Positions 5,577-38,614 of a DNA stretch of 56,908 nucleotides are shown one piece after another. This DNA comes from Bacillota bacterium (GTDB taxonomy: Bacteria; Bacillota; Clostridia; Caldicoprobacterales; DTU083). The position numbers and the translations under genes are program-made. Numbering within the stretch: position 1 is the first letter of the stretch; every line of letters starts with the position of its first letter. The stretch is from contig JAKORJ010000193.1 of NCBI GenBank assembly GCA_029777885.1, positions 1 through 56,908 of the forward strand. Direction: 5' to 3'. The notes beneath the pieces are model-generated. The model saw only the letters and a list, made by a program, of their open reading frames with translations. It was not told the origin of the DNA and did not search any database.

Positions 5577-5615
5577 CAAGGAGAATATCCATAATAATAG
5601 AGTAATTTGAAAGCA

Positions 5616-5655
5616 AGGCTTTACCGTACTTGATATCCACGGTACGGTAAAGCCT
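5616..5655 (+). terminator. Strong intra-operon hairpin (partial terminator or mRNA-stabilising stem-loop)
   Basis: A perfect 14-bp stem, AGGCTTTACCGTAC (5616-5629) with GTACGGTAAAGCCT (5642-5655), and a 12-nt loop. It is followed only by a weak U-tract (CTTCC). Confidence 0.5.
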
Positions 5656-5677
5656 CTTCCAATATAGGGGGCTGAAC

Positions 5678-9630: not shown

Positions 9631-9648
9631 GAAAGGGTGAGTGATCAC

Positions 9649-11171: not shown

Positions 11172-14009
11172 GTGAAAGCAAGGAAACTGTTTGCACTGGG
11201 CATGGCTCTTTTGTTGGCCCTATGTGTTGTAGCATGCCCAAATGCCGCTGCTTCTGTAAATGCTGATGCAACCATTAATGAAGCTGCTCCATATAGCTGG
11301 ACGGTAGTGGACGAAAGCATGGTAGCATACACAGTTGAAAACGAGGATGGCAGCCCGATGAAGCTTCTCCCCGGAAAGCCTGTCAGCCTGGATATACTTG
11401 TACCGGAAAGCGGATCATATCACTTGTTCCTTGAGTACCGTTCCCTCTCTGATATCGTATTGAAGAGCACGATGACCGTTGAGCTGGGAGATGCAGCCAC
11501 ACGCGTGGAGTTGTTTTCCTTATGGAAGGATGTATCCAAGGATTACCGGAAAGACCGGTTCGGCAATGAGCTGCCGGCTGAGCAGGAGGTCAGTGACGGA
11601 GTAGTTGCTGACTATGTAAAGGACCAGGCAGACGTATCGCAGCGGCCGTTTGTGTTTAAGCTGCCTGCAGGCGCCAGCAGACTGGTGCTGACCAGTGAAG
11701 ATACGGAGCTGGACTTGTACAGCGTGAAGCTTGTCAGGCGGGAAGATCCGCCTTCCTATGGTGAATACGCCGCCGATAAAGCTGCCCTGCCCCAGGGTAC
11801 GGAGCTTATAGTCATTGAGGGGGAGGATTACCGGTTAAAATCCGATTCCTATATCAGGGCAGGAGCCGAGCGCAATCCTGCTTTATATCCTTACGATTAC
11901 AGGGTAAAACGGCTCAATGTCCTGGATGGCTATTCCTTCTCCAGGGCGGGCCAGAAGGTCTTGTACAGCTTCAAAGTCAAGGAACCCGGGATATACTGCA
12001 TCAGCTTCCGTTATGCGCAGAACTACAAGGAGGGAGTGCCGGTCTACTGCAATGTCCGGATAGATGGCCACGAACTCTTCGATGAGATGCGCAGCGTGCC
12101 CTTCCCCTATACCGGCGTCAGGTATGCCAATAAGACAATCGGTACAGGCAATGGATATGCCGGTATTTACCTTGAGAAAGGGCACCATACCCTGACCCTC
12201 GAGCTGGATGGCACCCCGGTCGCTCCTTATATAAAAAGACTGAGGGAAATACTTGCGGATATCAATGGAATCGGTCTGGATATCCTGAAAATAGCAGGGC
12301 GCAATGCCAGTGTGCACAGGACATGGGATGTGGGAAGCTACCTCCCTGGCGTCATTGACCAGCTAGAAGGCTATAGGGAGGAGCTTTTGGATATTTACTC
12401 TCAGATAGGCAGGCTGCAGGACGGACGCCCGGCCGCGGCGCTGAACCTCAAGCTCGCGGCTGACAATCTGGGCAAGCTCCTTAAAAACCCAAGCAAGCTG
12501 CCGGGCAGGCTCTCGCTTTTGAGCGAAGGCTCCGGATCGGTGGCCCAGATGCTTGCCGATCTGGTAGACCGGCTGACATATCAGAACCTGTCTGTTGACC
12601 GCATATATGTACATGGAGCCGGAAAGACGCTGCCCAAGGCTGAAGCAGGGCTTTTTACCAGGCTTGCGGACGGCATCAGGCGTTTTTTCCATGCCTTGTT
12701 CTCTGGGGAAAGACAGGAGGACCATGACGGAAAGGTGCTGAAGGTATGGGTGAATCGGCCGATACATTATGTAGAGATTATGCAGGCCATGGCCGACGCT
12801 TCATATACTTCGGAAAAAGGCATCAATGTCAGATTTTCCGTAATGCCCAGTGAACAGAAAATAATACTGGCGAATGCAACCGACTCAGCCCCTGATGCAG
12901 TATTGGGGGTCGGAGCCGGTCTCCCCTTTGACCTTGGGATCAGGGGAGCTGTGGCAGACCTTATGCAATTCGAGGATTTCCCTTCATACATACAGAAGGA
13001 GTACAACATACAGTCCCTGGTGCCCTATGTGTACGGCGGCAAGGTGTTTGGAGCAACGGAAACCCAGGAATTCTATGTGCTGATGATGCGGACCGACATC
13101 ATGGACAAGCTGAACCTAGAGGTGCCCAGGACCTGGGATGATGTGGCCGATATGATGCCGATACTGCAAAGACACTCCATGAACTTTTACCTGCAGCTTT
13201 CAGGCTATAGCGGGACCAAGCCCCTGTATACCACCGTGCCCTTCATACAGCAGGCAAACGGCAGCCTGTACAGCAGTGACGGCCTTGCCACTGCGATCAA
13301 CTCGCCGGAGTCTTTAAGAGGGTTCGAGGCACTGACGGATCTATACAGGATATATAGTGTAACTCCTGTAGTATCAAGCTTTTACAACAGCTTTCGTTAC
13401 GGGCAGATACCTATAGGGATAGCTTCTTTTACAGATTATGTGAAAATTCGCAGCGCTGCCCCTGAAATTGCGGGTAATTGGGCGATAGCGCCCGCCCCGG
13501 GATTCATTGGCAAGGACGGAGAGATCAGAAACGGTACAACCGGTGCTGCTACTGCCTGCATCATTATGGAGCAGTCCGACATGAAGGAAGAGGCATGGGA
13601 CTTCCTAAAGTGGTGGCTGTCATCCGAGGTGCAGATAAAATTCGGCAATACCCTGCAGACCACTTATGGACCGGATTACCTGTGGAACAGCGCAAATATT
13701 GAGGCTTTTAAACAGCTGTCTTTCCCTGATGAGGACAAAGCAGTGATCCTGGACCAATGGGGACACATGGAGGAGATATACCGTCATCCGGCCTTATACG
13801 CAATAGAACGGGAGCTCAGCAACGCCTGGACCGATGTTGTGTTGAATGGCGTTCCGGTGCGTATAGCCCTCGATGATGCCGCCCTGGAGATAAACAGGGA
13901 ATTTGCGCGGAAGCTTGTGGAGTTCGGATACATGGAAAGAGATGGTACGGTGAAGAAAACATATGATCTCAAATCCATAGAAGAGATCATAAATGGGGTG
14001 AGGCCATGA
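11172..14009 (+). CDS. Giant (945-aa) solute-binding lipoprotein with N-terminal beta-sandwich/CBM-like modules
   Basis: GTG start and lipobox LALCVVAC. Two CBM-like N-terminal segments carry the size/shape motifs ESGSYHLFLEY..LYSVKLV and EPGIYCISFRY..GHHTLTLEL. The C-terminal ~430 aa are SBP-like (KVLKVWVNRP...SAPDAVLGV...GKVFGATETQEFYVLMMRTD). Confidence 0.75.
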   Translation: MKARKLFALGMALLLALCVVACPNAAASVNADATINEAAPYSWTVVDESMVAYTVENEDGSPMKLLPGKPVSLDILVPESGSYHLFLEYRSLSDIVLKSTMTVELGDAATRVELFSLWKDVSKDYRKDRFGNELPAEQEVSDGVVADYVKDQADVSQRPFVFKLPAGASRLVLTSEDTELDLYSVKLVRREDPPSYGEYAADKAALPQGTELIVIEGEDYRLKSDSYIRAGAERNPALYPYDYRVKRLNVLDGYSFSRAGQKVLYSFKVKEPGIYCISFRYAQNYKEGVPVYCNVRIDGHELFDEMRSVPFPYTGVRYANKTIGTGNGYAGIYLEKGHHTLTLELDGTPVAPYIKRLREILADINGIGLDILKIAGRNASVHRTWDVGSYLPGVIDQLEGYREELLDIYSQIGRLQDGRPAAALNLKLAADNLGKLLKNPSKLPGRLSLLSEGSGSVAQMLADLVDRLTYQNLSVDRIYVHGAGKTLPKAEAGLFTRLADGIRRFFHALFSGERQEDHDGKVLKVWVNRPIHYVEIMQAMADASYTSEKGINVRFSVMPSEQKIILANATDSAPDAVLGVGAGLPFDLGIRGAVADLMQFEDFPSYIQKEYNIQSLVPYVYGGKVFGATETQEFYVLMMRTDIMDKLNLEVPRTWDDVADMMPILQRHSMNFYLQLSGYSGTKPLYTTVPFIQQANGSLYSSDGLATAINSPESLRGFEALTDLYRIYSVTPVVSSFYNSFRYGQIPIGIASFTDYVKIRSAAPEIAGNWAIAPAPGFIGKDGEIRNGTTGAATACIIMEQSDMKEEAWDFLKWWLSSEVQIKFGNTLQTTYGPDYLWNSANIEAFKQLSFPDEDKAVILDQWGHMEEIYRHPALYAIERELSNAWTDVVLNGVPVRIALDDAALEINREFARKLVEFGYMERDGTVKKTYDLKSIEEIINGVRP

Positions 14010-14905
14010 AGAGCATAAGAGGACTGGCGGACCGTTATTCACATTGGGTACTGCTGATGCCCTTTCTGGTGTTTTTTACACTTTTTATACTTCTGCCGGT
14101 CATATTTGCCGTGCTCCTTTCCTTTACCCGCTATGATTCCATTCAGAGCCCGGTTTTTGTAGGCCTGCAGAATTACCTTGACATATTTACACATGATACA
14201 GTGTTTATGCAGAAGGTATTGCCGAATACGGCGACCTACGCCCTTATAGTCGGACCCGGAGGCTATATACTGTCATTCCTCCTGGCCTGGGTCATAGCTC
14301 AGATGCCTCGCATACCCCGTACGGTGCTGGCTATCGTGCTGTATTCGCCTTCGCTTCTCGGATCGGTTGCCCTGTCAACTATATGGGGAGTCCTGTTCTC
14401 GGGGGACAGGATGGGGTACCTGAACAATATACTGTATTCGCTGGGCTTGATAAATGAACCGGTTGCCTGGCTTACGTCTGCACAGACCCTGCTGCCCATA
14501 ATGATCTTTGTCGGCCTGTGGTCCAGCATGGGGGTGGGCTTCCTTGCTATGCTGGCAGGCATACTCAATGTAAATGCCGAGCTTTATGAAGCTGCTTACC
14601 TGGACGGGGTAAAAAACAGGATACAGGAGATCTATTATGTAACGATCCCGCTCATAAGGCCCCAGATGCTGTTCGGGGCGATAATGGCACTGGTAAATAC
14701 CTTTAATTCTCCAGGACTGGGCGTTGCATTGTCAGGCTCTAATCCAACCCCGGACTATGCAGGCCAGCTCATAGTCAATCATATGGATGATTATGGATTC
14801 CTGAGGTATGAGATGGGCTATGCTGCAGCCTTGTCGGTGGTACTGCTGACCTTTGTGTGGATAATGTCTAAGGCGGCTTATCGTATGTTCGAAGACAGGG
14901 ACTAA
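14006..14905 (+). CDS. Carbohydrate ABC transporter permease (MalF-like)
   Basis: 4-nt overlap (ATGA) with the upstream gene. Six predicted TM segments and an EAA-like loop (ELYEAAYLDGVKNRIQEIYYVTIPLIRP). Confidence 0.9.
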   Translation: MKSIRGLADRYSHWVLLMPFLVFFTLFILLPVIFAVLLSFTRYDSIQSPVFVGLQNYLDIFTHDTVFMQKVLPNTATYALIVGPGGYILSFLLAWVIAQMPRIPRTVLAIVLYSPSLLGSVALSTIWGVLFSGDRMGYLNNILYSLGLINEPVAWLTSAQTLLPIMIFVGLWSSMGVGFLAMLAGILNVNAELYEAAYLDGVKNRIQEIYYVTIPLIRPQMLFGAIMALVNTFNSPGLGVALSGSNPTPDYAGQLIVNHMDDYGFLRYEMGYAAALSVVLLTFVWIMSKAAYRMFEDRD

Positions 14906-14918
14906 GGGAGGGATGATC

Positions 14919-15788
14919 ATGAAATGCTGCATTAAAATCGGACCGGAACGTTTTCATGCCGACCAGATCAAATTCTTTATAATGATTTCTCCCTTTGCAG
15001 CCGTGATGCTGCTTCCCATCATATATGTCGTATTTCATGCCTTCAAACCGGTGGATGAGCTCTTTGCATTTCCGCCCAGGTTTATCACCCTGCGGCCTTC
15101 GCTTGAAAATTTCACCCGCCTTCTCCATACAGCGAATTCCTCCAACTATCCGGCAGCCCTGTATATTTTCAACAGCATCCTATCAACCCTGCTGACCGTT
15201 GTCGCAACCCTGTTGATCAGCGCTTCGGCGGGCTATGTGCTGTCCAAGAAGGAGTTTAAAGGAAAAAGGCTGATCATGAATATGAACCAGGCTGCCCTTA
15301 TGTTCGTGCCGGTAGCTGTTGCCGTACCAAGGTACATGATAATAAAAGGTCTGGGCCTGATGGACAGCTTTTTGTCTCACATTTTTCCCTTGCTGGCCAT
15401 GCCTGTAGGCTTATTTTTGGTCAAGCAGTTCATTGACCAGGTCCCGTCATCATTGCTTGAGGCAGCCAGGATAGACGGCTGTTCGGATTATGGGGTGCTG
15501 TTTCGTATAGTCATGCCGATCATCAAGCCGGCATTGGCCACCGTAGCGATCCTGTCCTTTCAGTCTGCCTGGAACAGCGTTGAGGCTTCCCAGATGTTCA
15601 TAGAAAATGAAAAACTGAAGACCTTTGCATATTACATGACAACGGTGACATCTCCCTCGGGCAGCTCTGTAGCAGGCCAGGGGATGGCAGCAGCTGCCGT
15701 CCTGATAATGGTAGTGCCAAATATTATACTGTTCATCATTATGCAGTCCCGGGTAATGAATACGGTTGCCCATTCAGGGATCAAATAG
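14919..15788 (+). CDS. Carbohydrate ABC transporter permease (MalG-like)
   Basis: ATG at 14919 lies 7 nt after AAGGGAGG, while the in-frame ATG at 14913 is too close to the RBS. EAA loop LLEAARIDGCSDYGVLFRIVMPIIKP. Confidence 0.88.
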   Translation: MKCCIKIGPERFHADQIKFFIMISPFAAVMLLPIIYVVFHAFKPVDELFAFPPRFITLRPSLENFTRLLHTANSSNYPAALYIFNSILSTLLTVVATLLISASAGYVLSKKEFKGKRLIMNMNQAALMFVPVAVAVPRYMIIKGLGLMDSFLSHIFPLLAMPVGLFLVKQFIDQVPSSLLEAARIDGCSDYGVLFRIVMPIIKPALATVAILSFQSAWNSVEASQMFIENEKLKTFAYYMTTVTSPSGSSVAGQGMAAAAVLIMVVPNIILFIIMQSRVMNTVAHSGIK

Positions 15789-15799
15789 GGGGTGGGGAC

Positions 15800-17836
15800 A
15801 TGTTTACTGCAAAGCGCCTGTTTATAATGCCTATTTGTGCCATCCTGCTTGCCTGCCTGGCAGTAAATACAGCTGCCGCCCGTATCCCTCAAACCGGCAA
15901 TTCAACCTCGATCACATACACATTATCATCCGACGGCAGCTGGTTGCGTACCCAGGATGCCTATCTGCCGGGCGAGATCCTGTTCCAGGATGACCCCCTG
16001 TGGCAGCCTGAGGATGTGTATGTATATGGCAATTGCCTGTATATTGCTGCCGCAGGCAACGGCTATGTCGTTGCATATGACCTTGATACCAGGAAGACAA
16101 GGATATATGGAGAGGGGACCCTCAATACTCCCACAGGCATATATGTGACCGGCCGGCAGGAGCTTTATGTGGCTGACTCGGGCTTTTCCAAGGTATTTGT
16201 GTTTGACGCTGAAGGCAAACTGCTTAGTGAATACGACAGGCCTGATGAAATGACATTTGGCGCCCAGGCACAATTTAAGCCTAAAAAGCTTGTGGTTGAT
16301 GAGTCAGGCGTCATGTCCATCGTTTCCGAGGGCTCTTATGACGGGGTGATCCAGCTTGGAGCAGAGGGTGAATTTCTGGGATACTTCGGATATAACTCGG
16401 TGCCAATGACCCTGCTTGAGCTGCTGCAGGACCGCTTTTTTACAGAAGAGCAGAAAAAACAGCTGTTCAACAGAATACCCCTGACCTTTTACAATCTCGC
16501 GTCCGATCCGGATGGTATTATATACACCATAACCCAAAGTGCTGTCGGTAATGCAATAAAAAAGCACAATATATCAGGTGTCAACATAATAAAGCATCAG
16601 ATGATCGATGAAAAAAACTTCACTGACATTGCGGTAGGGCCGACAGGACAGATCTATGCTGTGACACAGACAGGCCTGATATTTGAATATGACAATGACG
16701 GCAACCTCCTGTTCTCATTTGGCGGACAGGCTATATCCAGCGAACGCAGCGGCCTGCTCACAATAGCATCAGGTATAGCTGTCGATGATGAATATAACCT
16801 CTATGTGCTCGACAAGGAAAGAGGGCTGGTCCACACCTATGTGCCAACTGCTTTTGCAAATCTGGCCCATGAGGCGATCAATGAATATCGCCAGGGTAGT
16901 TATACATCCAGCAGGGACAAGCTGAATATGCTGCTTATGCTGGCAGGCAATGCCCGGTTTATTTACTATTACCTGGGCAAAAACGAGCTCCAGCTGAGAA
17001 ACCACCAGGCAGCTGCAGTGTTCTTCAGACAAGCCGGCGACCGCAGCGGATATTCGGAAGCCTTCTGGGAGATCAGAAACGATGTCATTAACGCCGTATT
17101 GCCGTGGATGTTTGCCGTATTTTTGGCAACAGTCCTGTTCAACCTTGTCCGTCGGTTGTGGAAAGGAAAACAGGCAGCACATCAAGGAACGCGGTTCCTT
17201 GTGAAAAGCCGTATCCTCAGTGACCTTATGTTCGGATTCAATGTACTAAGGCATCCCATAGACAGCTTTTACGAGGTCAAGACCGGGGCACGTGGGAGCA
17301 TATGGTCAGCAGTGATACTATACCTCCTGGCTTTCGGGGCTTTTGCCTTTGACTACCTGGGCAGGGGCTTTGCTTACAGCCTTAGGACGACAGAAAACAC
17401 CTCGCCCCTTTACGTCATACTTTTGTTCTTCCTGCCGGTTGCCCTGTTTATCATTTGCAGCTATATGGTCAGCGAACTGCATGACGGAAAGGGATGGTTC
17501 ATGACCGTATTTATAGGAATGTCATATGCCCTGGTGCCCTGGATATGTTTTCTTCCTGCGGTAACGGTGATGACCCACGTCCTTGCCCTGAACGAATCCT
17601 TTCTGATCACATTTTCAAGCCTGCTCGTATATGCCTGGACGACAGTGCTTGTGATACTGGCTATCCGTGAGATCCATGAATATGAGCTGCACCAGGTGCT
17701 GGGCAACATCATGCTGACGTTTTTTATGATGGTAGTGGTAATATTTGCATTTTCTATCATAGGGATGTTCTGGGATAAGGCCATAGAAATAGCCTCATCA
17801 ATCACAAGAGAGGTGAAGTATCGTGTCGGGCATTAG
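15800..17836 (+). CDS. Signal peptide + NHL-repeat beta-propeller + TPR-like segment + C-terminal Yip1-type polytopic membrane domain
   Basis: NHL-like blades appear as NTPTGIYVTGRQELYVADSGFSKVFVFDAEGKLL and ASGIAVDDEYNLYVLDKERGLVHTY. The C-terminal ~200 aa have five hydrophobic segments and a Yip1-like lead-in (NVLRHPIDSFYEVKTGARGSIWSAVILYLLAF). Confidence 0.65.
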   Translation: MFTAKRLFIMPICAILLACLAVNTAAARIPQTGNSTSITYTLSSDGSWLRTQDAYLPGEILFQDDPLWQPEDVYVYGNCLYIAAAGNGYVVAYDLDTRKTRIYGEGTLNTPTGIYVTGRQELYVADSGFSKVFVFDAEGKLLSEYDRPDEMTFGAQAQFKPKKLVVDESGVMSIVSEGSYDGVIQLGAEGEFLGYFGYNSVPMTLLELLQDRFFTEEQKKQLFNRIPLTFYNLASDPDGIIYTITQSAVGNAIKKHNISGVNIIKHQMIDEKNFTDIAVGPTGQIYAVTQTGLIFEYDNDGNLLFSFGGQAISSERSGLLTIASGIAVDDEYNLYVLDKERGLVHTYVPTAFANLAHEAINEYRQGSYTSSRDKLNMLLMLAGNARFIYYYLGKNELQLRNHQAAAVFFRQAGDRSGYSEAFWEIRNDVINAVLPWMFAVFLATVLFNLVRRLWKGKQAAHQGTRFLVKSRILSDLMFGFNVLRHPIDSFYEVKTGARGSIWSAVILYLLAFGAFAFDYLGRGFAYSLRTTENTSPLYVILLFFLPVALFIICSYMVSELHDGKGWFMTVFIGMSYALVPWICFLPAVTVMTHVLALNESFLITFSSLLVYAWTTVLVILAIREIHEYELHQVLGNIMLTFFMMVVVIFAFSIIGMFWDKAIEIASSITREVKYRVGH

Positions 17837-20102
17837 AGCAATAAAGCTATCCGTGATTGCGGGGCTGATACCGGCCTTGCTGCTGATATCAGGCTGCAGC
17901 TATTCATTGCAGCAGGATACAGGCTTGTCAGCAGGGATGCTTGTGAGCGGCAGTCTTGAACTAAGCTCCAGCCGCCATACCAAGCCGGAGCCTGCTTCGG
18001 AAGAGATTCCGGGGTTGAGCCTGGACGGGTTTGAAAAGAAACTGGAAAACGAACGATTTGAGCTATACTTCCGGGGCGAGACCGGGGCTATCAGGCTGAA
18101 GGATAAACGCAGCGGCTATGTATGGGGATCGATAGCTGAAGATAAGCCTTTCAATCTGAACAGGACCTGGTCAGCAATAGCCAATTCTGTCATAGCTATA
18201 GATGTATATGATGTCAACGGGGCGCTGAAAACCCTTGGCGCAGGAAAAGACGGGTTGATCCTGTCCGTTCATGGAAACAGGATCGAGGCAAAAGTGCATT
18301 GGCCTGAACAGCAGATAGAATTGAAATTTGAAATGGAGCTGACAGCAGAAGGGCTCAGGCTCAGGCTGGATGATGAGTCCATACGTGAAATAGGGGAATT
18401 TAGCCTGGGTGCCGTTTATTTCCTTCCCTTTTTCGGTTCAACGATAGGGGATGAAAAGCAAGGCTATATTTTTGTTCCAGACGGCTGCGGCGCGCTCATC
18501 CGCTTTACAAAGCCAAGGGGATACCTGCAGGGCTTTTCAAAGAGAGTGTATGGCAACGACTTTGGGATAGACAGCCTGTCTGCTATAGAAGACCTGGGGG
18601 CAAACCGTGTAAATGCCTTTGCCATGGATGAGGAAACCGTTTCTTTGCCAGTGTTCGGCGTCGTGCATGGCACAAAGCAGAACGCATTTCTGGCTGTAAT
18701 CGAGCAGGGTGAATCCTATGCAGAGATACAGGCTAATCCCGCAGGCATTACAACGGACTACAACAGGGTGACCGCCAGGTTTGTGTACCGTCAGAAATAT
18801 GAACAGCCGGTAAGCAAGGCAGGCGCCGGCGTCCAGGTGCTGCAGAAAAACAGAAATGAGGTCAATCCGGTTATAAGCTACTGCTTTTTGACCGGCGAAA
18901 ACGCGGATTATGTCGGTATGGCCAAGGCATACCGCAGGTATCTTGTTGACAAGGGGATCTTGGAGAAACAGCAGCCTAAGGATGGAGATATTGCTTTAAG
19001 GCTCGATTTCCTTGCCGCGGATATCAAAAAGGAGTTCATTGGGACTTCAGTGCTGAAGATAACAGGCATTGATGAAATAGAGCAACTGGTAAGGAAGCTT
19101 CATGACATGGGGATCACCAACCTGGAGGTCTCCTTGTCCGGATGGCAGGATGGCGGGCTAAACGGTCACAGGAAGACCCGGATTAGTACTGATACAGTCT
19201 ATGGCGGGATATCGAGCCTGGGCGACCTCAAGCAGCTGGTTGGACCCGACGGCAAGCTCAGCCTGTACCTAAGTCCGTTTACCGCCCTGAAGGAACAGCT
19301 CGATCTAAGGAGCGAGGCTGCGATAACAGTATCGCAAAATGTAGTTAAAATTAAAACCGATGATGAGTCTTACCCCTACCTTTATTTCGTAAAGACCAGC
19401 AAGGCGCTGGATACGCTTGAAAACCAGGTATCTGCGATGGCAGCGGCCGGCTATGCCAATTGGGTATTGGATGATGTCGGATATCTCTTATACGGCGAGT
19501 ATCTGCAGAACAAGACTATTTCCCGGGAAGAGGCCCGGCTGTTGGTGCAGCAGGCAGTGGCCGATCTAGCGTGCAGGTACGGCAGGTTGGAAATTGTCCG
19601 TCCCAATCAGTACCTGCTTGAATATACCGATGCCTACCTGTCAGCGCCTATAGTCAGCAGTCAGCTGTTGTTTGAGACCGATACAGTCCCCTTTCTGCAG
19701 ATAGTGCTATCGGGCTATATAACGATGTATGCTCCCTACACTAATCTAAGCCTGTATTCCCGAGCTGACATCCTCAGGCAGATAGATTACAACATGCTTC
19801 CCTCATTCCTGCTTACAGGGAAGACCAATTATGAGCTAAAACGTACGGCTTCAGCTCATATCCAATCCTCATGGATAGAACACTGGGATGAGTATATTGT
19901 TGAAGTCTATGAAATGATGAATGAAATCATGTCAAAGATAAGGGGACAGGCATTCGTAGACAGGATCGTGCTTGAAACCGGCCTTGTAAAAAATATATAT
20001 GAATCAGGTACAGTATATATCAACTACAATTCAACTGACAAACAGGCCGACGGGCTGTCTATCCCGGCTATGTCAGCGATTTATGCGGAAGGCAGGAAGT
20101 GA
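17823..20102 (+). CDS. Large lipoprotein, DUF5696-like (function unknown; candidate glycan-active enzyme)
   Basis: 14-nt overlap with the upstream gene and lipobox LLISGCSY. The motif GYIFVPDGCGALIRF and the overall size recall DUF5696 proteins. From memory, these neighbour Yip1 and large SBP genes in Paenibacillus and Clostridia. Confidence 0.5.
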   Translation: MSGIRAIKLSVIAGLIPALLLISGCSYSLQQDTGLSAGMLVSGSLELSSSRHTKPEPASEEIPGLSLDGFEKKLENERFELYFRGETGAIRLKDKRSGYVWGSIAEDKPFNLNRTWSAIANSVIAIDVYDVNGALKTLGAGKDGLILSVHGNRIEAKVHWPEQQIELKFEMELTAEGLRLRLDDESIREIGEFSLGAVYFLPFFGSTIGDEKQGYIFVPDGCGALIRFTKPRGYLQGFSKRVYGNDFGIDSLSAIEDLGANRVNAFAMDEETVSLPVFGVVHGTKQNAFLAVIEQGESYAEIQANPAGITTDYNRVTARFVYRQKYEQPVSKAGAGVQVLQKNRNEVNPVISYCFLTGENADYVGMAKAYRRYLVDKGILEKQQPKDGDIALRLDFLAADIKKEFIGTSVLKITGIDEIEQLVRKLHDMGITNLEVSLSGWQDGGLNGHRKTRISTDTVYGGISSLGDLKQLVGPDGKLSLYLSPFTALKEQLDLRSEAAITVSQNVVKIKTDDESYPYLYFVKTSKALDTLENQVSAMAAAGYANWVLDDVGYLLYGEYLQNKTISREEARLLVQQAVADLACRYGRLEIVRPNQYLLEYTDAYLSAPIVSSQLLFETDTVPFLQIVLSGYITMYAPYTNLSLYSRADILRQIDYNMLPSFLLTGKTNYELKRTASAHIQSSWIEHWDEYIVEVYEMMNEIMSKIRGQAFVDRIVLETGLVKNIYESGTVYINYNSTDKQADGLSIPAMSAIYAEGRK

Positions 20103-21061
20103 TGAGAGAGATGAGCCATTTTAGGTCAAACCTGTTATCTAGGAGACAGAAGAAAGCTGCAGCCGGAGCCAAATGTTCAACCGATGAAGTCAGAAGGCCA
20201 TGGCTCAGCAGTATGCAGGCAAAAGAGGCTGTGAGCGGCTACTTGTTTTTCTTGCCCTGGCTGGCAGGCTTTCTGATATTTACGATCTATCCTTTTGTAT
20301 ACTCGGTTCTGCTGAGCTTCAGTGAGGTCATCCTTTCTCCTGCCGGGATCAAAAGGTCGTTCATAGGTCTTAAATGGTATCGTGAAGCCCTGACTGCGGA
20401 TGCGACCTATCCTGTAAGCCTGTTGGATACGCTGAGATTTATAGTGCTATCCACACCCATGATCACAGTTGCTGCATTGCTGCTTGCCTTGCTGCTCAAC
20501 GGCAGGTTCAGGGGCAGGACTTTTTTCCGGGCGGTATTTTTCTTTCCGGTGATCATAATAAGCGGGCCTGTGATAGCAGAGCTATTAAGCACCAAGGCTG
20601 CTGTTGTGATAAATCCGTCGGATTATGCTGTTTATGAGTTTGTCCGGACCCTGCCAGGGTTCCTGTCGATGCCCCTCCTTTATATATTTGACAATATTGT
20701 GCTGATACTATGGTTTTCCGGAGTACAAGTCATTATTTTCCTGGCTGGCATCCAAAAAATCGGACAGCCTATCCGGGAGGCAGCATCCATCGACGGTGCT
20801 TCAGCATGGCAGATGTTCTGGAAGATCTACCTGCCCTTCCTAAAGCCGCTGGTTCTGCTGAACACGATTTATACCATAGTGATGCTGTCGGGCTTTTCAA
20901 GCAATGCAGTGAATGGGGAGATCGTAAACAAAATGACACTGACAGGGAAAGTATATGGGTATTCATCGGCTATGTCATGGATCTATTTCATCTTGCTGAT
21001 TATACTGCTTGGCATAACCTATCTGATATTCAGCGAAAGAAAGGGAAGGGCGGGCTACTGA
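20099..21061 (+). CDS. Carbohydrate ABC transporter permease (second pair, MalF-like)
   Basis: It overlaps the upstream stop. The start is ambiguous among GTG 20099, ATG 20102 and ATG 20111. EAA loop IREAASIDGASAWQMFWKIYLPFLKP. Confidence 0.85.
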   Translation: MMREMSHFRSNLLSRRQKKAAAGAKCSTDEVRRPWLSSMQAKEAVSGYLFFLPWLAGFLIFTIYPFVYSVLLSFSEVILSPAGIKRSFIGLKWYREALTADATYPVSLLDTLRFIVLSTPMITVAALLLALLLNGRFRGRTFFRAVFFFPVIIISGPVIAELLSTKAAVVINPSDYAVYEFVRTLPGFLSMPLLYIFDNIVLILWFSGVQVIIFLAGIQKIGQPIREAASIDGASAWQMFWKIYLPFLKPLVLLNTIYTIVMLSGFSSNAVNGEIVNKMTLTGKVYGYSSAMSWIYFILLIILLGITYLIFSERKGRAGY

Positions 21062-21951
21062 TGATTTCAAGACGCAGAATCCGTGTGTTTGCTGGGCTTC
21101 AGCTTAGATACTTCCTATTGATCGGCATAGGCCTTGTATTTCTATATCCTGTTGCCTATATGCTGGTCAATTCAGCCAAGAGCCTGCCTGACCTGGTCAA
21201 TCCCACTATAGAGTGGATACCTTCTACCTTGTACCTGGACAATTACAGCAGGGCGTTGAAGGTGCTGGATTACAGGCATACCCTGATCGTTACGGTCCTG
21301 CTTGTCGCCATGGAAACCCTGCTCCAGACCTTTTCCTGCTCCCTGGCCGGATATGCCCTGGCGCGGTACAGGATGCCTTTTAAACGGTTCTGGATGGCAA
21401 TGGTCGTTATTACCTTCCTGATACCTTCCCATGTGACCCTGATACCAAAATACATAATGTTCTCAAGCTACCAGCTGGTAGGCAGCCCCCTGTCTGTCTT
21501 GCTGCCGGCCTCCCTGGGACAGGGCATCAACAGTACTGTATTTGTTTTGATTTTCTATCAGTTTTTCTCGTCGTACCCCAGATCATTCGATGAAGCGGCC
21601 CAGATAGACGGAGCCGGCAGGCTAAGGGTTTTTTTCCGGATAGCCCTGCCTGTGTGCGTCCCCGCGATAGTAGTCTCATTGCTCTTTTCCTTTGTATGGT
21701 TCTGGAATGAGACCTATACTTCGGGCTTGCTTCTTGGCTCAGGCTTAAGGACATTGCCCATGAAGCTTCAATCCTTTGTGGAGGAGTACAGTCGGTCTTT
21801 CAGTTCCGGTAGTGACGGTGTTAACAGGATCAATGAGAGCATCCGCTCTGCTGCGACCCTGCTGGTTATAACGCCTCTCCTCATGCTGTATTTGGTTATG
21901 CAGCGCTATTTCATAGAGGGAGTGGAGTCATCGGGGATAACAGGAGAATAG
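21061..21951 (+). CDS. Carbohydrate ABC transporter permease (second pair, MalG-like)
   Basis: ATG at 21061 overlaps the upstream TGA by 1 nt. The track ORF (20710-21951) extends upstream out of frame over the previous gene. EAA loop FDEAAQIDGAGRLRVFFRIALPV. Confidence 0.85.
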   Translation: MISRRRIRVFAGLQLRYFLLIGIGLVFLYPVAYMLVNSAKSLPDLVNPTIEWIPSTLYLDNYSRALKVLDYRHTLIVTVLLVAMETLLQTFSCSLAGYALARYRMPFKRFWMAMVVITFLIPSHVTLIPKYIMFSSYQLVGSPLSVLLPASLGQGINSTVFVLIFYQFFSSYPRSFDEAAQIDGAGRLRVFFRIALPVCVPAIVVSLLFSFVWFWNETYTSGLLLGSGLRTLPMKLQSFVEEYSRSFSSGSDGVNRINESIRSAATLLVITPLLMLYLVMQRYFIEGVESSGITGE

Positions 21952-21986: not shown

Positions 21987-23039
21987 ATGGACAAGTGCTA
22001 TGGTGTTGTACTTATAGGATGCGGGCATATAGGAGAGCAGCATATTGAGGATATATATTATCGCGACAATGTGGATATAGTTGGGGTCGTGGATGTAAAT
22101 GAGGAGCTGGCACGCACCTTTGCGCGAAAATACAATGCAAAGGCCTATGGAACGGACTATCTGCCCTTTCTCAGAATGAAGGAAACAGATATCGTTATAA
22201 TAGCAACTTACGCTGACAGCCATCTAGGGATATTGCAGGACTGCCTGCGATATAAAAAGCATGTGCTGTGTGAAAAACCCATTGCTTCCAGCCTGGCGGC
22301 AGGGAAAAGGTTCTACTCCCTGGTAAAGGGTACTCAGCAGAAGGTGCTGGTTGCCCATATACTGAGGCATAACAAATCATACCAGAAGGTCGCTGAGCTC
22401 ATACAAAGCGGTGCCATAGGCAGGCTTAGGCTGATACGAATGGTCCAGAATCATCATGCGATAAACTGGCAGAGATATAAAAGGCTTATGGCTGACTGCC
22501 CTCCCATAGTGGACTGTGGTGTTCACTATATCGATGTTATGCAGTGGTTTTCGGGCTCGCGGGTGGTCGAGGTAAGCGGGATAAGCTGCAGGCTTGACAG
22601 TGATGTTGATGTAGACAATTACGGTGTTATAAACGTAAGGTTTGCTAACGGGTGTATCGGATACTATGAAGCCGGATGGAGCAGAAACCTGGGATCATGC
22701 AATGTCAAAGAGTTTATTGGCGATAGGGGACGGATCAGCCTTACCCTCAGGGAGAACAGGCCTGCCAACCGGGAGGAGGGCGACTTGATAACCCTGTATA
22801 GCAGTGATACCGGAGAGTACAAAACGATCAATATCCAGTCAAAATATAACGATATGTATGCGCAGCTGTCCGCGCTGATCGACATGATCGAATCCAATGC
22901 ACCGGCGAATCCGGATATAGACGATGTCTATAGTGCCTTTTACACTGCAATGGTGGCAAAAGAGGCAATTGAGAACAAATGCTGTTACCGGATACAGCCT
23001 TTTGATGTGCGCACTGCTGTTGGCCACTTAAGCATTTGA
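21987..23039 (+). CDS. Gfo/Idh/MocA-family oxidoreductase
   Basis: ATG at 21987 follows GGAAGGG. Motifs YGVVLIGCGHIGEQH, HVLCEKP and IVDCGVHYIDVMQW. Confidence 0.85.
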   Translation: MDKCYGVVLIGCGHIGEQHIEDIYYRDNVDIVGVVDVNEELARTFARKYNAKAYGTDYLPFLRMKETDIVIIATYADSHLGILQDCLRYKKHVLCEKPIASSLAAGKRFYSLVKGTQQKVLVAHILRHNKSYQKVAELIQSGAIGRLRLIRMVQNHHAINWQRYKRLMADCPPIVDCGVHYIDVMQWFSGSRVVEVSGISCRLDSDVDVDNYGVINVRFANGCIGYYEAGWSRNLGSCNVKEFIGDRGRISLTLRENRPANREEGDLITLYSSDTGEYKTINIQSKYNDMYAQLSALIDMIESNAPANPDIDDVYSAFYTAMVAKEAIENKCCYRIQPFDVRTAVGHLSI

Positions 23040-23083
23040 AATATACAAAATATAAACTATTAATGCGTAAAGGAGAGGATATT

Positions 23084-23938
23084 ATGAGCAATTTTAAAAT
23101 CGGGATCATAGCAGACGGATTGCGGCTTCCGTTCAGAGAGAGCATGGAGAAATGCGCGCAAATGGGCGCTGATGGAGTTCAGCTTTATGCCGTGAGCGGA
23201 GATATGGCACCCGAGAACATGACCCGCTCCGATCTCGTTGAGAAGCGTTCCATCATAAGGGATTGCGGCCTGGAGGTTTCCGCCCTTTGCGGTGACCTGG
23301 GGGGGCACGGATTTGCTGTTTTGGAGGAAAATGCCTGGAAAATCGAGAAATCAAAGCGCATTATTGATCTTGCCCTGGAGTTCGGCTGCAATATCGTTAC
23401 GACTCATATCGGGGTGATCCCGGCAGACAAGGCCGGAGCAAGGTATGGGATCATGCAAGAGGCCTGCAACGAGCTGGCTGAATATGCGCACAAATGTGGT
23501 GCATACTTAGCTATTGAAACAGGGCCTGAACCGGCCACTCATCTGAAAGAGTTTTTAGACAGCCTGAGCAGCAAAGGCCTTGCTGTCAACATGGATCCCG
23601 CTAATCTGGTAATGGTCACCGGTGATGATCCGGTACAGGCAGTATATACACTGAAGGAATATATCGTACATACTCATGCCAAGGATGGAATAATGTTACA
23701 AAAGACTGACCCGCAGGTCATCTACGACTTTTTCGCTGAAGGCGGTATAGGCGATCTACGGCTGGAGGACTATTTCAAGGAGATGCCCCTGGGACAGGGG
23801 AATGTGGACTTTGGCAGGTATCTGGCTGCGCTAAAGGATATTGGATATAGCGGCTACCTGACTATTGAAAGAGAGCTTGGCAGCGATCCGGAAGCTGATA
23901 TACGGGCGGCAGTTGATTTCCTGAGAAAGATGATATAA
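23084..23938 (+). CDS. Sugar phosphate isomerase/epimerase-family (xylose-isomerase-like TIM barrel) protein
   Basis: RBS AAAGGAGAGG. Family motifs are GADGVQLYA, HIGVIP, LAIETGPE, NMDPANL, HTHAKDG and GYSGYLTIERE. Confidence 0.85.
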   Translation: MSNFKIGIIADGLRLPFRESMEKCAQMGADGVQLYAVSGDMAPENMTRSDLVEKRSIIRDCGLEVSALCGDLGGHGFAVLEENAWKIEKSKRIIDLALEFGCNIVTTHIGVIPADKAGARYGIMQEACNELAEYAHKCGAYLAIETGPEPATHLKEFLDSLSSKGLAVNMDPANLVMVTGDDPVQAVYTLKEYIVHTHAKDGIMLQKTDPQVIYDFFAEGGIGDLRLEDYFKEMPLGQGNVDFGRYLAALKDIGYSGYLTIERELGSDPEADIRAAVDFLRKMI

Positions 23939-23996: not shown

Positions 23997-25082
23997 GTGA
24001 ATTGCTTAGTGACTGACCTGCTATATCGAAAGAGAACCGGTATCCCGCTCATCTCGCTGTCGATCGCGTATAGCTGCGTACTCGTATCACTGATCGTGTA
24101 TTTCAAGCCTGAATACTATGACATACTTGGCGGCAGCGATCCTGTTTTTTATCCATGGCAATATTTGACCAATTACCTGCAGCACGGCACTACGCTTGTT
24201 CTTAAGGGTCTTATGCACCCCTTTCTGCAACTTGCGTTGAATTTACTGGTAATACTGATATTTGGTTCCCTGGCCGAAAGGGTCTTGGGCACAAAAAGGT
24301 TCCTGGCCTTCATCGGATCATCCCTGGCCCTAGCATTGGTGGTACGGCTGATATTTGGTATTCGTGAAGATGGTATAGCGCCCATCGCCTGGAGCTTTGC
24401 CCCGGCTGTCTGTCTAATATTGCTGTATTCAGTCAGGAAGCTCAAGCGCAGGATCCTTTCAGACCCGGTCCTGTATATATGCCTGGCCCTTCTTGCTGCG
24501 GTATGGCTCGTGGTTACGGTAGCCAACCTGGCAAAGGGCCTGCACACCAACAACCTGCTGAATCTTACAGGGACAGTTGCAGGGGCCTCTCTTGCGTATC
24601 TCTGGAAGGGCTATATAACCAGGCGGGTGACAGAGCTGCTGGATGGCTGCCTCGAGGGCAGCAAACGCGACATCTTGGACAGGAGCCTTTCCCTGGCAGG
24701 CCTGGTGATCCCTTGCCTGATAATTGCCATCCTGGCCTCGGCGATCTCAGGCTCTCTAAAAGACCATGTCACTACCTCATACATTGTGGAGATCTGCCCC
24801 AGGAGCGGGTCCATAGAGGATATCAACAATGCAGACAAACGGATAATACTGAAGTTCAGCGAGCCCATGAGGGAGGAGATAGCCCAAAGCAGGATATCCA
24901 TCGAATCCCAGGCTGATTCCTCGCCCTTGTCCGGCAATATAATCTGGGCGGATGATAAGACCCTCGTCATACGCTTCAACAGAGCCATCCAAAATGGCGA
25001 ACAGGTCGACGTCATGCTCAAGGGCCTGAGAGATACAGAAAACCGGGGATATTATGACATAATAAGCCTTGTATACAATTAG
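23997..25082 (+). CDS. Polytopic membrane protein, rhomboid-like N-terminal region, with a C-terminal Ig-like (SbsA-type) domain
   Basis: WQYLTNYLQHG...HPFLQLALNLLVILIFGSLAERVLG resembles rhomboid TM2 and the following loop. The GxSG position is degenerate (FIGSSLA). The C-terminal segment is KRIILKFSEPM...LVIRFNRAIQNGEQVDVMLKGL. The start codon is uncertain. Confidence 0.4.
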   Translation: MNCLVTDLLYRKRTGIPLISLSIAYSCVLVSLIVYFKPEYYDILGGSDPVFYPWQYLTNYLQHGTTLVLKGLMHPFLQLALNLLVILIFGSLAERVLGTKRFLAFIGSSLALALVVRLIFGIREDGIAPIAWSFAPAVCLILLYSVRKLKRRILSDPVLYICLALLAAVWLVVTVANLAKGLHTNNLLNLTGTVAGASLAYLWKGYITRRVTELLDGCLEGSKRDILDRSLSLAGLVIPCLIIAILASAISGSLKDHVTTSYIVEICPRSGSIEDINNADKRIILKFSEPMREEIAQSRISIESQADSSPLSGNIIWADDKTLVIRFNRAIQNGEQVDVMLKGLRDTENRGYYDIISLVYN

Positions 25083-25104
25083 ATGAACTGAATAAGAATA
25101 ATTT

Positions 25105-25132
25105 GCCTGTTTCTCGAAACGGGCATTTTTTT
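25105..25132 (+). terminator. Rho-independent terminator
   Basis: GCCTGTTTC pairs with GAAACGGGC and is followed by ATTTTTTT. Confidence 0.7.
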
Positions 25133-29580: not shown

Positions 29581-31332
29581 TTGGCAGTGAAACTGGAGGC
29601 TCAGATCCCGAGGCCGGAATATCCCAGGCCTCAGATGGTCAGGGACAAGTGGATAAACTTGAACGGCACCTGGGAGTTTGAAATGGACTTTGGCAGGAGC
29701 GGCAGGGATAGAGAGCTCTACAAAAAGGACAGGCTTTCTGGCACGATCCTTGTGCCCTTTTGCCCGGAAAGCAAGCTGTCCGGGATCGAATATACGGATT
29801 TCATACCGGCCGTATGGTATAAAAGGGAGTTCGACCTGCCCGAGGACTGGCAGGGTGGCAGGATCCTTCTGCATTTCGGCGCTGTTGATTACCATGCCTG
29901 GGTTTGGATAAACGGCAAGCCAGCGGGCAGCCACAAGGGCGGGTATTCGTCCTTCTCCTTCGACATAACCGACCTGGTGCAGAAAGGGACGAATACGGTA
30001 ACGGTCTATGCTGAGGACGATGTGCGTTCCGGCAGGCAGCCAAGAGGCAAGCAGAGGGAGGAACACCATTTTATCTATTCAGGCTGCGATTATACAAGGA
30101 CTACAGGCATATGGCAAACCGTATGGCTGGAGTGGGTGCCCGAAAGTTATATATCCTCTTTCAGGCTGATACCGGATCCGGAAAACGGATGCGTACATAT
30201 AGAGGCCTTGGTCAAGGGCCCCTCTAAAGGCTTGACCTTGACAGCCAGGGCTGCATACAAGGGAAAGGCCGTCGGCGAAGGACAGGCCAGGGCTTCGGCT
30301 AGCGGCTTCCGGCTGACCTTGGAGTTGTCGGAGATACATCTTTGGGAACCAGGCAAGCCCGAGTTGTATGACCTGGACCTGGTGCTTGTCGGCCATGGCG
30401 GCACCCTGGATGTGGTAAGAAGCTATTTCGGACTAAGGTCCGTCTCTTTAAGCGACAAGGCCATACTCATAAACGGCAGGCCGGTGTTCCAGCGGCTGGT
30501 GCTGGACCAGGGCTTTTATCCTGACGGCATTTATACCGCCCCGACTGACGCAGACCTTAAGCGGGACATCGAGATCTCCATGGGCCTGGGGTTCAACGGG
30601 GCCAGGCTGCACCAGAAGATATTCGAGCCAAGGTTTTTGTACTGGGCTGACAGGCTCGGCTATCTCGTTTGGGGCGAGCATGGCAGCTGGGGGCTTGATA
30701 TAACCGGCCCGGCAGGGCTTGAGAATTTCCTGCCCGAATGGATGGAAGCGATAGAGCGTGACTTCAACCACCCATCGATCGTGGGCTGGTGCCCGTTCAA
30801 CGAGACCTGGGACCGGAACGGCACGAAGCAGGATAACGAGGTACTCAGGATCGTGTACAACGTGACCAAGGCCATGGACCATACCCGGCCGGTCATCGAC
30901 ACCAGCGGCAATTTCCATGTGGTGACGGACATCTTCGACATCCATGACTATGACCAGGATCCTGCATCCTTCGCAGCCAAGTTCCAGCCGATGCAGGAGG
31001 GCAGCGGGGTTTACGTGACTTATCCTGACAGGCAGAAATATGAAGGCCAGCCCTACTTTGTGAGTGAGTACGGCGGCATCTGGTGGAACCCGGAAAACAA
31101 GGGCGGCTGGGGCTACGGCTCACGGCCTGCCAGCGAGGAGGAGTTCATTGCCCGCTACAAGGGCCTGACCGAGGTCCTGCTCAACAACAAGAATATATGC
31201 GCTTTCTGCTATACCCAGCTATATGACATAGAGCAGGAAGTAAACGGGCTCTATACCTATGACCGGAGGCCCAAGTTCGATCCTTCGATCATACGGGCTA
31301 TAAATACCCAGAAGGCTGCTATTGAAGAGTAA
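29581..31332 (+). CDS. Glycoside hydrolase family 2 protein
   Basis: TTG start follows AAAGGGG. N-terminal EYPRPQMVRDKWINLNGTWEF, acid/base region NHPSIVGWCPFNE and nucleophile region YFVSEYGG. Confidence 0.85.
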   Translation: MAVKLEAQIPRPEYPRPQMVRDKWINLNGTWEFEMDFGRSGRDRELYKKDRLSGTILVPFCPESKLSGIEYTDFIPAVWYKREFDLPEDWQGGRILLHFGAVDYHAWVWINGKPAGSHKGGYSSFSFDITDLVQKGTNTVTVYAEDDVRSGRQPRGKQREEHHFIYSGCDYTRTTGIWQTVWLEWVPESYISSFRLIPDPENGCVHIEALVKGPSKGLTLTARAAYKGKAVGEGQARASASGFRLTLELSEIHLWEPGKPELYDLDLVLVGHGGTLDVVRSYFGLRSVSLSDKAILINGRPVFQRLVLDQGFYPDGIYTAPTDADLKRDIEISMGLGFNGARLHQKIFEPRFLYWADRLGYLVWGEHGSWGLDITGPAGLENFLPEWMEAIERDFNHPSIVGWCPFNETWDRNGTKQDNEVLRIVYNVTKAMDHTRPVIDTSGNFHVVTDIFDIHDYDQDPASFAAKFQPMQEGSGVYVTYPDRQKYEGQPYFVSEYGGIWWNPENKGGWGYGSRPASEEEFIARYKGLTEVLLNNKNICAFCYTQLYDIEQEVNGLYTYDRRPKFDPSIIRAINTQKAAIEE

Positions 31333-37133: not shown

Positions 37134-37189
37134 GCTCCTGCCATCCGGCACAGGTGATCCAGACAGCTGACGATACAGGAGGAAAAGAT

Positions 37190-38512: not shown

Positions 38513-38614
38513 TTCCTGTTGAATACCTCTTGTGTATATGTTACATTTATAATACATGACATTATGTAAACTATACAAAAGCTGCACAGGAGGTAATTCA
38601 AGGGGGTTTTATCA

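Follow-up and report, generated by a model that had tools for sequence, protein, structure and literature searches.

We analysed a gene cluster (652-25082) in a 56,908-nucleotide stretch of DNA from a Bacillota bacterium (contig JAKORJ010000193.1), called the window below, and focused on two genes near the end of this cluster (21987-23938), which encode a Gfo/Idh/MocA dehydrogenase, Gfo3, and a xylose-isomerase-like TIM barrel protein, hereafter TIM. We found that the Gfo3-TIM pair is the distal half of a widespread, AraC-controlled cassette that also encodes a DgpA-related dehydrogenase, Gfo1, and a Gfo-like protein, Gfo2half. The pathway that we favour, with a confidence somewhat short of even, is that this cytoplasmic cassette performs C3 oxidation, elimination and/or hydration, and then reduction of imported gluco-configured glycosides. 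It is favoured because Gfo1 is DgpA-like and TIM is DgpG-like, their linkage is conserved, and the glycan contexts of the cassette vary. The reading is built on gene content, homologies, predicted folds and conserved synteny, from which we infer each of the catalytic steps as well as the substrate. Recognition of 3-keto-mediated glycoside cleavage as a general alternative to hydrolases is recent, and the characterised examples of such cleavage come mostly from Bacteroidota and Proteobacteria, with few from Firmicutes. The first-pass annotation of this DNA had already called both focal genes, and they were confirmed as real by the open reading frames (Table 1), by Pfam and by five public contigs, on which independent gene calls gave identical products (350 and 284 amino acids, aa). 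It had further proposed a DgpA-type 3-dehydrogenase coupled to a TIM barrel; Gfo1 is indeed DgpA-related and TIM is linked across genomes, but the DgpA-like gene is that of Gfo1 at the head of the cluster, not that of Gfo3.

Gfo1 is specifically related to DgpA. Pfam identified it as a full-length Gfo/Idh/MocA protein (E 1e-26), and the PDB search returned DgpA (7xr9, E 8.5e-52) and DgpA1 (9m3d, 6e-49), followed by a drop to 2e-25; its bit score was 179 to 7xr9 versus 92 to the next structure. A public contig (L098) proved to carry the dgp operon, with a DgpA 98% identical to the enzyme of strain PUE. BLAST aligned Gfo1 with this DgpA at 33% identity over 364 aa (E 1.6e-48), and Gfo1 is its reciprocal best match within the window. 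The glucose pocket of DgpA contains K100, R159, D182, H186 and E264 (PMC9939296). We identified the Gfo1 equivalents as K97, R155/R158, D180, H184 and E263, and these residues were kept across 21 sequences of the Gfo1 group, E263 in 20 of them. Judged from its sequence, Gfo1 is a proposed glycoside 3-dehydrogenase. None of Gfo1, Gfo3 and TIM reached a curated NCBIfam cut-off. Against BT_2158, BT_2159 and LevoglcsnDh, with cut-offs of 750, 650 and 650 bits, Gfo1 scored 53, 63 and 109 bits and Gfo3 scored 44, 78 and 73 bits; these scores rule out membership of the three equivalogs, not the activity.

TIM was assigned by Pfam to AP_endonuc_2, the xylose-isomerase-like TIM barrel family (E 8e-36), and its start codon is preceded by AAAGGAGAGG, a good ribosome-binding site. 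It belongs to a large group, with more than 8000 homologues, the top 120 of which are 69-76% identical, and the family is regularly linked to DgpA-like dehydrogenases. One orthologue, P0026, is present on some 800 contigs, one of them from a mouse-gut metagenome, and is indexed in 1389 collection blocks. Its best named relative is DgpG (BLAST, 27.5% over 236 aa, E 2.6e-21), which in turn matches 2zds (1e-17) and, weakly, AtHYD (8ro4, 5e-5) in the PDB. The AlphaFold2 (AF2) model of TIM has a predicted local distance difference test score (pLDDT) of 92, and the invariant residues E145, D171, H198, E262 and H108 lie at strand ends in this model (the C-terminal ends for the first four), where they fit a metal site. 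The active site of AL1/BT1 has been described as His/Asp/His plus Glu (bioRxiv 10.1101/2024.03.25.586180). AtHYD, the 2-hydroxy-3-keto-glucal hydratase of A. tumefaciens, stood at rank 16 in the Foldseek list of TIM, with a template modelling (TM) score of 0.76, and gave E 1.6 in the sequence-profile search. TIM is put forward as a proposed metal-dependent 3-keto-glycoside lyase and/or 2-hydroxy-3-keto-glycal hydratase.

The other two cassette proteins differ in how far they follow the Gfo/Idh/MocA pattern. In Gfo3, Pfam found the GFO_IDH_MocA N-terminal domain (E 9e-23) and the C3 domain (2e-20), and the motifs GCGHIG, EKP and D176-x3-H180 are all kept. Its best PDB match was 3ezy (9e-23), with DgpA1 (9m3d) at 1e-12 and DgpA (7xr9) at 1.5e-9; BLAST gave 21% identity to the DgpA of L098 (E 4e-9) and no match to DgpF, and Gfo3 is 25% identical to Gfo1. 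We propose that Gfo3 is a 3-keto-sugar reductase or a second dehydrogenase. The first-pass annotation had listed three Gfo/Idh/MocA genes, and the assignment held for Gfo1 and Gfo3 but only loosely for Gfo2half, which exceeded the Pfam cut-off marginally (25.8 versus 24 bits), lacks the GxGxxG NAD loop, and has DKT in place of EKP. Its best PDB match was 3uuw (6e-4). These features mark Gfo2half, at the sequence level, as Gfo-derived and not a canonical dehydrogenase. At E<=1e-30 the family comprises 170 clusters (50% identity), almost all with proteins of about 280 aa, and H15, D71, H84, K96, D101, K102, R132, Y159, H162 and E165 are invariant in 19 sequences. The member P0365 carries an FAD_oxidored (PF12831) domain in a fusion that may be real, and in five loci a free-standing PF12831-like gene lies near TIM. 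Further fusions of Gfo2half, to TrmD, a PD40 propeller and GH28, were left out as apparent gene-calling joins.

We then examined the conservation of the cassette in 80 loci from GTDB species genomes and in further contigs, onto each of which the window proteins were mapped (loci are cited by L numbers). For the 17 loci in which TIM reaches 65% identity and the sequence extends 3 kb or more on each side, neighbours within 5 kb were counted. The partner of TIM was Gfo1 in 13 of these loci, Gfo2half in 11, Gfo3 in 7, the AraC-family regulator in 6 and the DUF5696 protein in 2, and Gfo2half adjoins Gfo1 in 11 of the 17. The recurring unit is [AraC]-Gfo1-Gfo2half-TIM-Gfo3, and it is contiguous in many Clostridia and, among the loci mapped, in L007, L008, L016, L018 and L021. 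Since Gfo3-TIM or TIM-Gfo3 pairs recur in many genomes, the adjacency of the two genes in the window is not due to chance. In L001, the Gfo protein on one side of TIM is 73% identical to window Gfo1 and that on the other side is 63-69% identical to window Gfo3; across genomes, Gfo3 orthologues adjoining TIM have 53-69% identity, and AraC orthologues in the contiguous cassette have 57-61% (L017, L018). The window cassette is split, with Gfo1-Gfo2half-AraC at the head and Gfo3-TIM at the tail of an 18-kb glycan module. Elsewhere, it stands alone with just the AraC gene (L087, L089), adjoins GH94 (1,2-beta-oligoglucan phosphorylase-like) and GH144 genes together with a second binding protein of about 950 aa (L001), or has genes adjoining GH3 and DUF4838 (L091). 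A chemistry indifferent to the aglycone would suit a cassette found on its own as well as beside glycan modules that differ greatly from one another.

In Paenibacillus, Cohnella, Thermoanaerobacter and C. amylolyticum, the TIM orthologues are more distant (55-65% identity) and are preceded by a Gfo gene and by the gene of a second, different barrel, TIM2. The closest matches of TIM2 were Art22 (1e-22), 4ovx (4e-12) and DgpC1 (2e-5), and 4ovx has been reported as the structure that DgpC resembles most (PMC8563793). In L025, L041 and L065, from Thermoanaerobacter, C. amylolyticum and Paenibacillus, the Gfo genes next to TIM2-TIM match DgpA at E 1e-51 to 1e-58.

The cluster is tightly packed and co-directional. 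Every gene of the cluster lies on the + strand, with intergenic gaps of -14 to 101 bp (Table 1). The gap between TIM and the following rhomboid-like gene contains no terminator-like site, and the strongest terminator-like hairpin (25104-25125) lies past the rhomboid-like gene, which follows TIM in the same order on public contigs and may be the last gene of the transcription unit. All four cassette proteins lack a signal peptide, and the glycoside hydrolase (GH)-like proteins of the cluster are exported.

Table 1. Genes of the cluster and the glycoside hydrolase genes farther downstream in the window (aa, amino acids; CBM, carbohydrate-binding module; SBP, solute-binding protein; GH, glycoside hydrolase).
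Feature	Position	Strand	Basis
Gfo1, DgpA-related Gfo/Idh/MocA dehydrogenase, 353 aa, no signal peptide	652-1713	+	Pfam, PDB, BLAST
Gfo2half, conserved Gfo-like protein, 279 aa, no GxGxxG NAD loop	1763-2602	+	Marginal Pfam match
AraC-family regulator, part of the cassette	2620-3570	+	Pfam AraC_binding and HTH_18
Anchored protein with two CBM35 matches	3576-5576	+	Pfam, N-terminal signal/anchor sequence
Anchored beta-helix protein, CBM35-like C-terminus below threshold	5678-7054	+	Pfam, N-terminal signal/anchor
Secreted DUF4434 and Fn3 protein	7051-9630	+	Pfam, N-terminal signal/anchor
SBP-like lipoprotein	9637-11118	+	Pfam, lipoprotein-type N-terminus
Giant solute-binding protein, 945 aa	11172-14009	+	Pfam, lipoprotein-type N-terminus
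First permease pair	14006-14905, 14913-15788	+	Pfam
NHL-repeat/Yip1 membrane protein	15800-17836	+	Pfam
DUF5696 lipoprotein, predicted GH129/GH101/GH36-like glycosidase fold	17823-20102	+	Pfam, AF2 model, Foldseek
Second permease pair	20102-21061, 21061-21951	+	Pfam BPD_transp_1, gene calls on public contigs
Gfo3, canonical Gfo/Idh/MocA dehydrogenase, orphan subfamily, 350 aa, no signal peptide	21987-23039	+	Pfam
TIM, xylose-isomerase-like TIM barrel, 284 aa, no signal peptide, cytoplasmic	23084-23938	+	Pfam
Rhomboid-like membrane protein, C-terminal Big_5 domain	23997-25082	+	Pfam
GH2, no signal peptide, outside the cluster	29581-31332		Pfam survey
GH144-like (PF10091), no signal peptide, outside the cluster	38615-39844		Pfam survey
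GH38 (alpha-mannosidase), no signal peptide, outside the cluster	49177-52326		Pfam survey

In the favoured pathway, Gfo1 would oxidise C3 of the non-reducing sugar in imported gluco-configured oligosaccharides or glycosides. [quoted passage not shown] The 3-keto-sugar would be reduced to the free sugar by Gfo3, or by Gfo1 through a redox-neutral ping-pong of the kind that DgpA carries out with 3-oxo-glucose. DgpA has tightly bound NAD(H) and 3-oxo-glucose acts as its hydride acceptor, and the hydratase that regenerates 3-oxo-glucose in the DgpA system was unidentified as of 2019 (10.1101/816074). A redox-neutral cycle of this kind would suit a fermentative anaerobe. Oxidation-elimination cleavage of imported oligosaccharides, as the first-pass annotation had put it, is plausible in outline and fits the known paradigm (bioRxiv 10.1101/2024.03.25.586180; PMC10628242; PMC7676230), but no recognisable lyase of a known type is present.

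Several observations weigh against this pathway. The nearest structure to TIM, by Foldseek and by family profile, was 3tva, a Planctopirus protein of unknown function, followed by the Art22 isomerase (4e-13; we found no relevant literature on Art22), UlaE, SCO6571 (2zds) and ketose (tagatose/psicose) 3-epimerases, so that its closest characterised relatives by sequence and by fold are isomerases and epimerases. The invariant E145/D171/H198/E262 set is presumably the usual pattern of the epimerase/isomerase group, not the AL1/BT1 arrangement, and common across the superfamily. TIM gave no BLASTP match to DgpC at E<1e-3 (tblastn E 4.4), DgpC/CGD entries were absent from its PDB profile matches at E<=10 and from its Foldseek top 50, and 3-keto-glycoside lyases of the DgpC/PuCGE, AtOGE or AL1/BT1 types were likewise absent from its sequence matches at E<=10 and its top 50 structures. 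Taken together, the sequence and structure searches do not separate lyase, hydratase and epimerase roles for TIM, which is the chief weakness of the favoured pathway. Moreover, half of the more distant TIM loci carry no nearby Gfo gene. On the side of the dehydrogenases, DgpA orthologues are at least 80% identical across many Clostridia versus 33% for Gfo1, indicating that Gfo1 represents a paralogous subfamily and not an orthologue, and its substrate may differ from that of DgpA; DgpA itself also oxidises free glucose and binds glucose in its substrate pocket (PMC9939296). Gfo3 has no informative relative among the proteins that it matched. Neither DgpB (best tblastn E 1.2 against the whole window; no CGDB, PF19906, Pfam match in the scanned proteins) nor a DUF1080 protein was found. 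In other genomes the cassette has classical GH3 and GH94 enzymes for neighbours and hence is not necessarily a substitute for hydrolases. Finally, the source sequence was found only in DNA metagenomes, from anaerobic digesters, wastewater and biofilm, and no RNA run contains it.

These relatives of TIM and its invariant residue set give weight to the main rival, which we consider rather unlikely, a YcjQRS-like 3-keto interconversion without bond cleavage. Here one Gfo protein would oxidise C3 of an imported sugar or glycoside, TIM would epimerise or isomerise the product at a neighbouring carbon and the second Gfo protein would reduce it with altered stereochemistry, converting a rare sugar into a common one. 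The two non-orthologous Gfo proteins (25% identity) fit such an oxidise/epimerise/reduce logic, YcjR (6wn6) matches TIM at E 2.3e-4, and in the Thermoanaerobacter locus L025 a Zn-dependent alcohol dehydrogenase gene after TIM recalls YcjQ. However, the YcjR match is limited to TIM residues 228-282, the C-terminal quarter of the protein, and the Pfam survey of the window found no YcjQ-like Zn-dependent alcohol dehydrogenase gene; the window has no phosphorylase or beta-phosphoglucomutase gene either. It is also hard to square one rare sugar with a cassette that occurs beside many unrelated glycan modules and alone, and oligosaccharides, which would still have to be cleaved, are the usual cargo of CUT1-type importers with large binding proteins. 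In addition, Gfo1 has a pocket like that of a glucoside 3-dehydrogenase.

It is also possible, but in our view improbable, that the pair has a salvage role only. TIM and Gfo3 would then process a free 3-keto-sugar, 3-keto-glycal or anhydro-sugar (levoglucosan- or 1,5-anhydrofructose-like) made elsewhere, spontaneously or by the exported DUF5696 protein, and ordinary glycosidases would cut the bonds. This would agree with the resemblance of TIM not to the lyase DgpC but to DgpG, which is grouped with DgpF and a ROK kinase in a sugar-recovery-like set; with L091, where TIM-Gfo3 lies next to a GH3 gene without Gfo1; with the 3,6-anhydro-galactosidase among the closest structures of DUF5696; and with the cytoplasmic GH2, GH144-like and GH38 proteins encoded in the window. 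On the other hand, TIM is accompanied most constantly by Gfo1 and Gfo2half, which points to oxidation within the cassette, no glycal-generating lyase was found in the searches described above, and the anhydro-sugar idea draws on fold similarity.

A more far-reaching version, which we regard as distinctly improbable, is that the four cassette proteins together make up a non-Koshland glycosidase, distinct, cytoplasmic and widespread in anaerobic Firmicutes. Gfo2half would be a lyase/hydratase or an obligate partner, the lone DgpG-type barrel would replace the usual pair, and in this organism the enzyme would be wired to a new glycan-uptake machine made up of DUF5696 as a GH129-related new GH family, the NHL/Yip1 protein, the 945-aa binding protein and the twin permease pairs.

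The top NCBIfam family of Gfo3 was iolG (2e-41, full length), with 142 bits against a cut-off of 355, and in a control the authentic DgpA likewise had iolG as its top family at a sub-threshold 121 bits, so the score of Gfo3 is uninformative on inositol. The weakest alternative, catabolism of a cyclitol such as inositol or inosose, in which Gfo3 would be an IolG-type enzyme and TIM an IolE/IolI-type dehydratase or isomerase, is suggested by this match, by 3ezy, which we take to be the Thermotoga TM0414 inositol dehydrogenase, and by weak matches of TIM to IolO and IolE, and was rejected as most improbable, given that the iolG signal is generic to the family, iolE scored 22 bits against a cut-off of 290, the Pfam survey of the window found no iolB-, iolC-, iolD- or iolJ-like gene, and the surrounding genes serve polysaccharide capture and oligosaccharide import. 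Clustering with inositol enzymes, which the first-pass annotation had raised as the finding that would speak against its proposal, was thus not seen in any meaningful sense.

The genes between the two halves of the cassette encode the capture and import of glycans. The exported proteins at 3576-9630 are presumed to capture and depolymerise a polysaccharide; PDB searches with the DUF4434 and beta-helix proteins were uninformative on its identity. They are followed by a seven-gene module (11172-21951) in the order binding protein of about 950 aa, two permeases, NHL/Yip1 protein, DUF5696 protein and two permeases, which is fixed in L001-L006 and L036 (Lachnospiraceae, Oscillospiraceae) and contains no ATPase gene. 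We found no literature on DUF5696 and no relevant literature on DUF4434. The AF2 model of the DUF5696 protein (pLDDT 90) matched ZgGH129 (5opq, E 4e-32, TM 0.70) and NagBb (5wzn, 5e-24, TM 0.73) in Foldseek, then GH101, GH36 and GH31 structures, the GH129 matches including a 3,6-anhydro-D-galactosidase and an alpha-N-acetylgalactosaminidase. In an alignment of 50 sequences, D220 was the sole invariant carboxylate and D246 was nearly invariant. The model makes DUF5696 a candidate new glycoside hydrolase family, and because of its GH129-like fold the cluster holds likely, exported glycosidases.

These proteins bear on the earlier statement that the operon lacks cytoplasmic GH genes. It holds formally for 652-25082, but DUF5696 with its GH129-like fold and DUF4434 are present there, and the GH2, GH144-like and GH38 genes, all without signal peptide, lie 5.6-25 kb downstream in the window. 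The description of the pathway as hydrolase-independent was accordingly an overstatement, as the cluster contains GH-like proteins and the cassette elsewhere stands beside GH3 or GH94/GH144. At 35517-39844 of the window, the GH144-like gene comes after the genes of two exported proteins without Pfam match, and this gene and the GH94/GH144 genes of L001 make a repeated link to beta-1,2-glucan genes.

Other neighbourhoods of TIM were recorded as side observations. DUF4127 genes directly adjoin the cassette in two Bacillota genomes (L007 5358-7971, L024 7916-9430), and L007 also has a NanE-like gene. A long co-directional operon of the Thermoanaerobacter metagenome-assembled genome (MAG) in L025 (1-20328) comprises genes for an Opp-type ATP-binding cassette (ABC) system, a lyase of the heparinase II/III-like kind, NanE, two DgpA-like Gfo proteins, TIM2, TIM, the Zn-dependent dehydrogenase, an M55 peptidase, GH4, DUF4855, an epimerase and a DHDPS-like protein, a context of amino-sugar or acidic glycan use. 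In the Lentisphaeria/Verrucomicrobia loci L046, L048, L069, L072 and L075 (TIM 53-58% identity), no Gfo gene was found in the available flanks. TIM lies beside TRAP-transporter-like genes, by sequence appearance, in L046, L069, L072 and L075, which hints at a carboxylated substrate there.

If the favoured pathway is true, it would give a function to DgpG-type proteins, possibly that of the hydratase still lacking from the DgpA system. A further consequence would be that much of the 'DgpA-like' gene pool of Clostridia serves ordinary carbohydrate use and not flavonoid C-glycosides, and that gut and digester anaerobes have a route for oligosaccharides, thioglycosides or drug glycosides that is invisible to CAZy-based annotation. 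Independently of this pathway, DUF5696 stands as a candidate for a new family of glycoside hydrolases.

We compared the window with known 3-keto systems, starting with the dgp operon of the gut strain PUE. On L098 its order is DgpA (Gfo), DgpB (CGDB), DgpC (TIM), DgpD (major facilitator superfamily, MFS), DgpE (AraC-GH39), DgpF (Gfo), DgpG (TIM) and DgpH (ROK). The window shares with it a DgpA-type Gfo, a DgpG-type TIM, an AraC-type domain and a second Gfo gene. In contrast, the MFS transporter, the ROK kinase, DgpB and DgpC are found there and not in the window, where DgpD and DgpH had no match anywhere; without DgpB and a DgpC-type lyase, the window has no machinery for breaking C-C bonds. 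The window instead has Gfo2half, ABC import, a cassette split around a glycan module, and a Gfo3 unrelated to DgpF. The analogy to DgpA/DgpBC C-glycoside cleavage that the first-pass annotation had drawn was abandoned, since TIM is not DgpC-like and DgpB is absent, leaving two of the three defining parts missing; C-glycoside cleavage was rejected here for the same absence. DgpA orthologues at least 80% identical are widespread in Clostridia (Butyricicoccus, Faecalicatena, Hungatella, Breznakia). The second Gfo-TIM-ROK trio, DgpF-G-H, is present in L098 and absent from the Hungatella-type operon (L099-L100 compared), and it resembles a set that would recover glucose from the elimination product.

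Every characterised 3-keto pathway combines Gfo dehydrogenases with 'sugar phosphate isomerase' TIM barrels, often near an ABC importer. DfgC, a Gfo-type protein, and DfgD, a TIM-barrel protein (AKC35075.1, AKC35076.1), would offer the closest precedent in function for a pairing of Gfo and TIM. They form a two-protein flavonoid O-glucosidase, encoded beside DgpA/DgpBC homologues in the Lachnospiraceae Catenibacillus scindens and E. cellulosolvens, and DfgCD homologues are reported to be scarce in gut MAGs (PMC11170127, PMC8398226), in contrast to the abundant homologues of TIM. YcjQ/YcjR/YcjS of E. coli share with the window a Gfo protein and a xylose-isomerase-like TIM barrel beside a CUT1 ABC importer, and differ from it in that the YcjR match covers just the C-terminal 55 residues.

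Two further systems are the A. tumefaciens pathway of AtOGE/AtHYD/Gfo (PMC10628242) and the levoglucosan pathway of LgdA/B1/B2/C, whose genes in B. smithii adjoin an ABC sugar importer (PMC7676230). Their shared logic is a Gfo dehydrogenase, a TIM eliminase, a TIM hydratase and a Gfo reductase, with an ABC importer nearby in B. smithii. Both use two TIM barrels versus one in the window, and the levoglucosan dehydrogenase cut-off was not reached by the window proteins. The AL/BT systems and the Gram-positive P2B11 (Iso1-Oxido1-Oxido2-Iso2, without transporter or regulator) have been described in bioRxiv 10.1101/2024.03.25.586180. BT2156-2160 of B. thetaiotaomicron, its Alistipes counterpart and P2B11 share with the window two Gfo oxidoreductases with 'sugar phosphate isomerase' TIM barrel(s), and the compact P2B11, without a transporter of its own, is like the stand-alone cassettes L087 and L089. 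The structure 8tdi matched weakly (1.6e-15 to Gfo1, 1e-6 to Gfo3), and the Gfo proteins of the window missed the BT_2158 and BT_2159 cut-offs by about 570-700 bits. P2B11 has two TIM barrels and the window one, the window lacks DUF1080, and its cassette proteins are cytoplasmic versus periplasmic in the Alistipes/BT-P2B11 comparison systems. Altogether, the type of pathway is known, and the cassette is uncharacterised and unlike the characterised clusters in its make-up. It combines a Gfo-like protein without NAD loop and an orphan Gfo with just one barrel, of the DgpG type, and its two halves flank a twin-ABC module with DUF5696.

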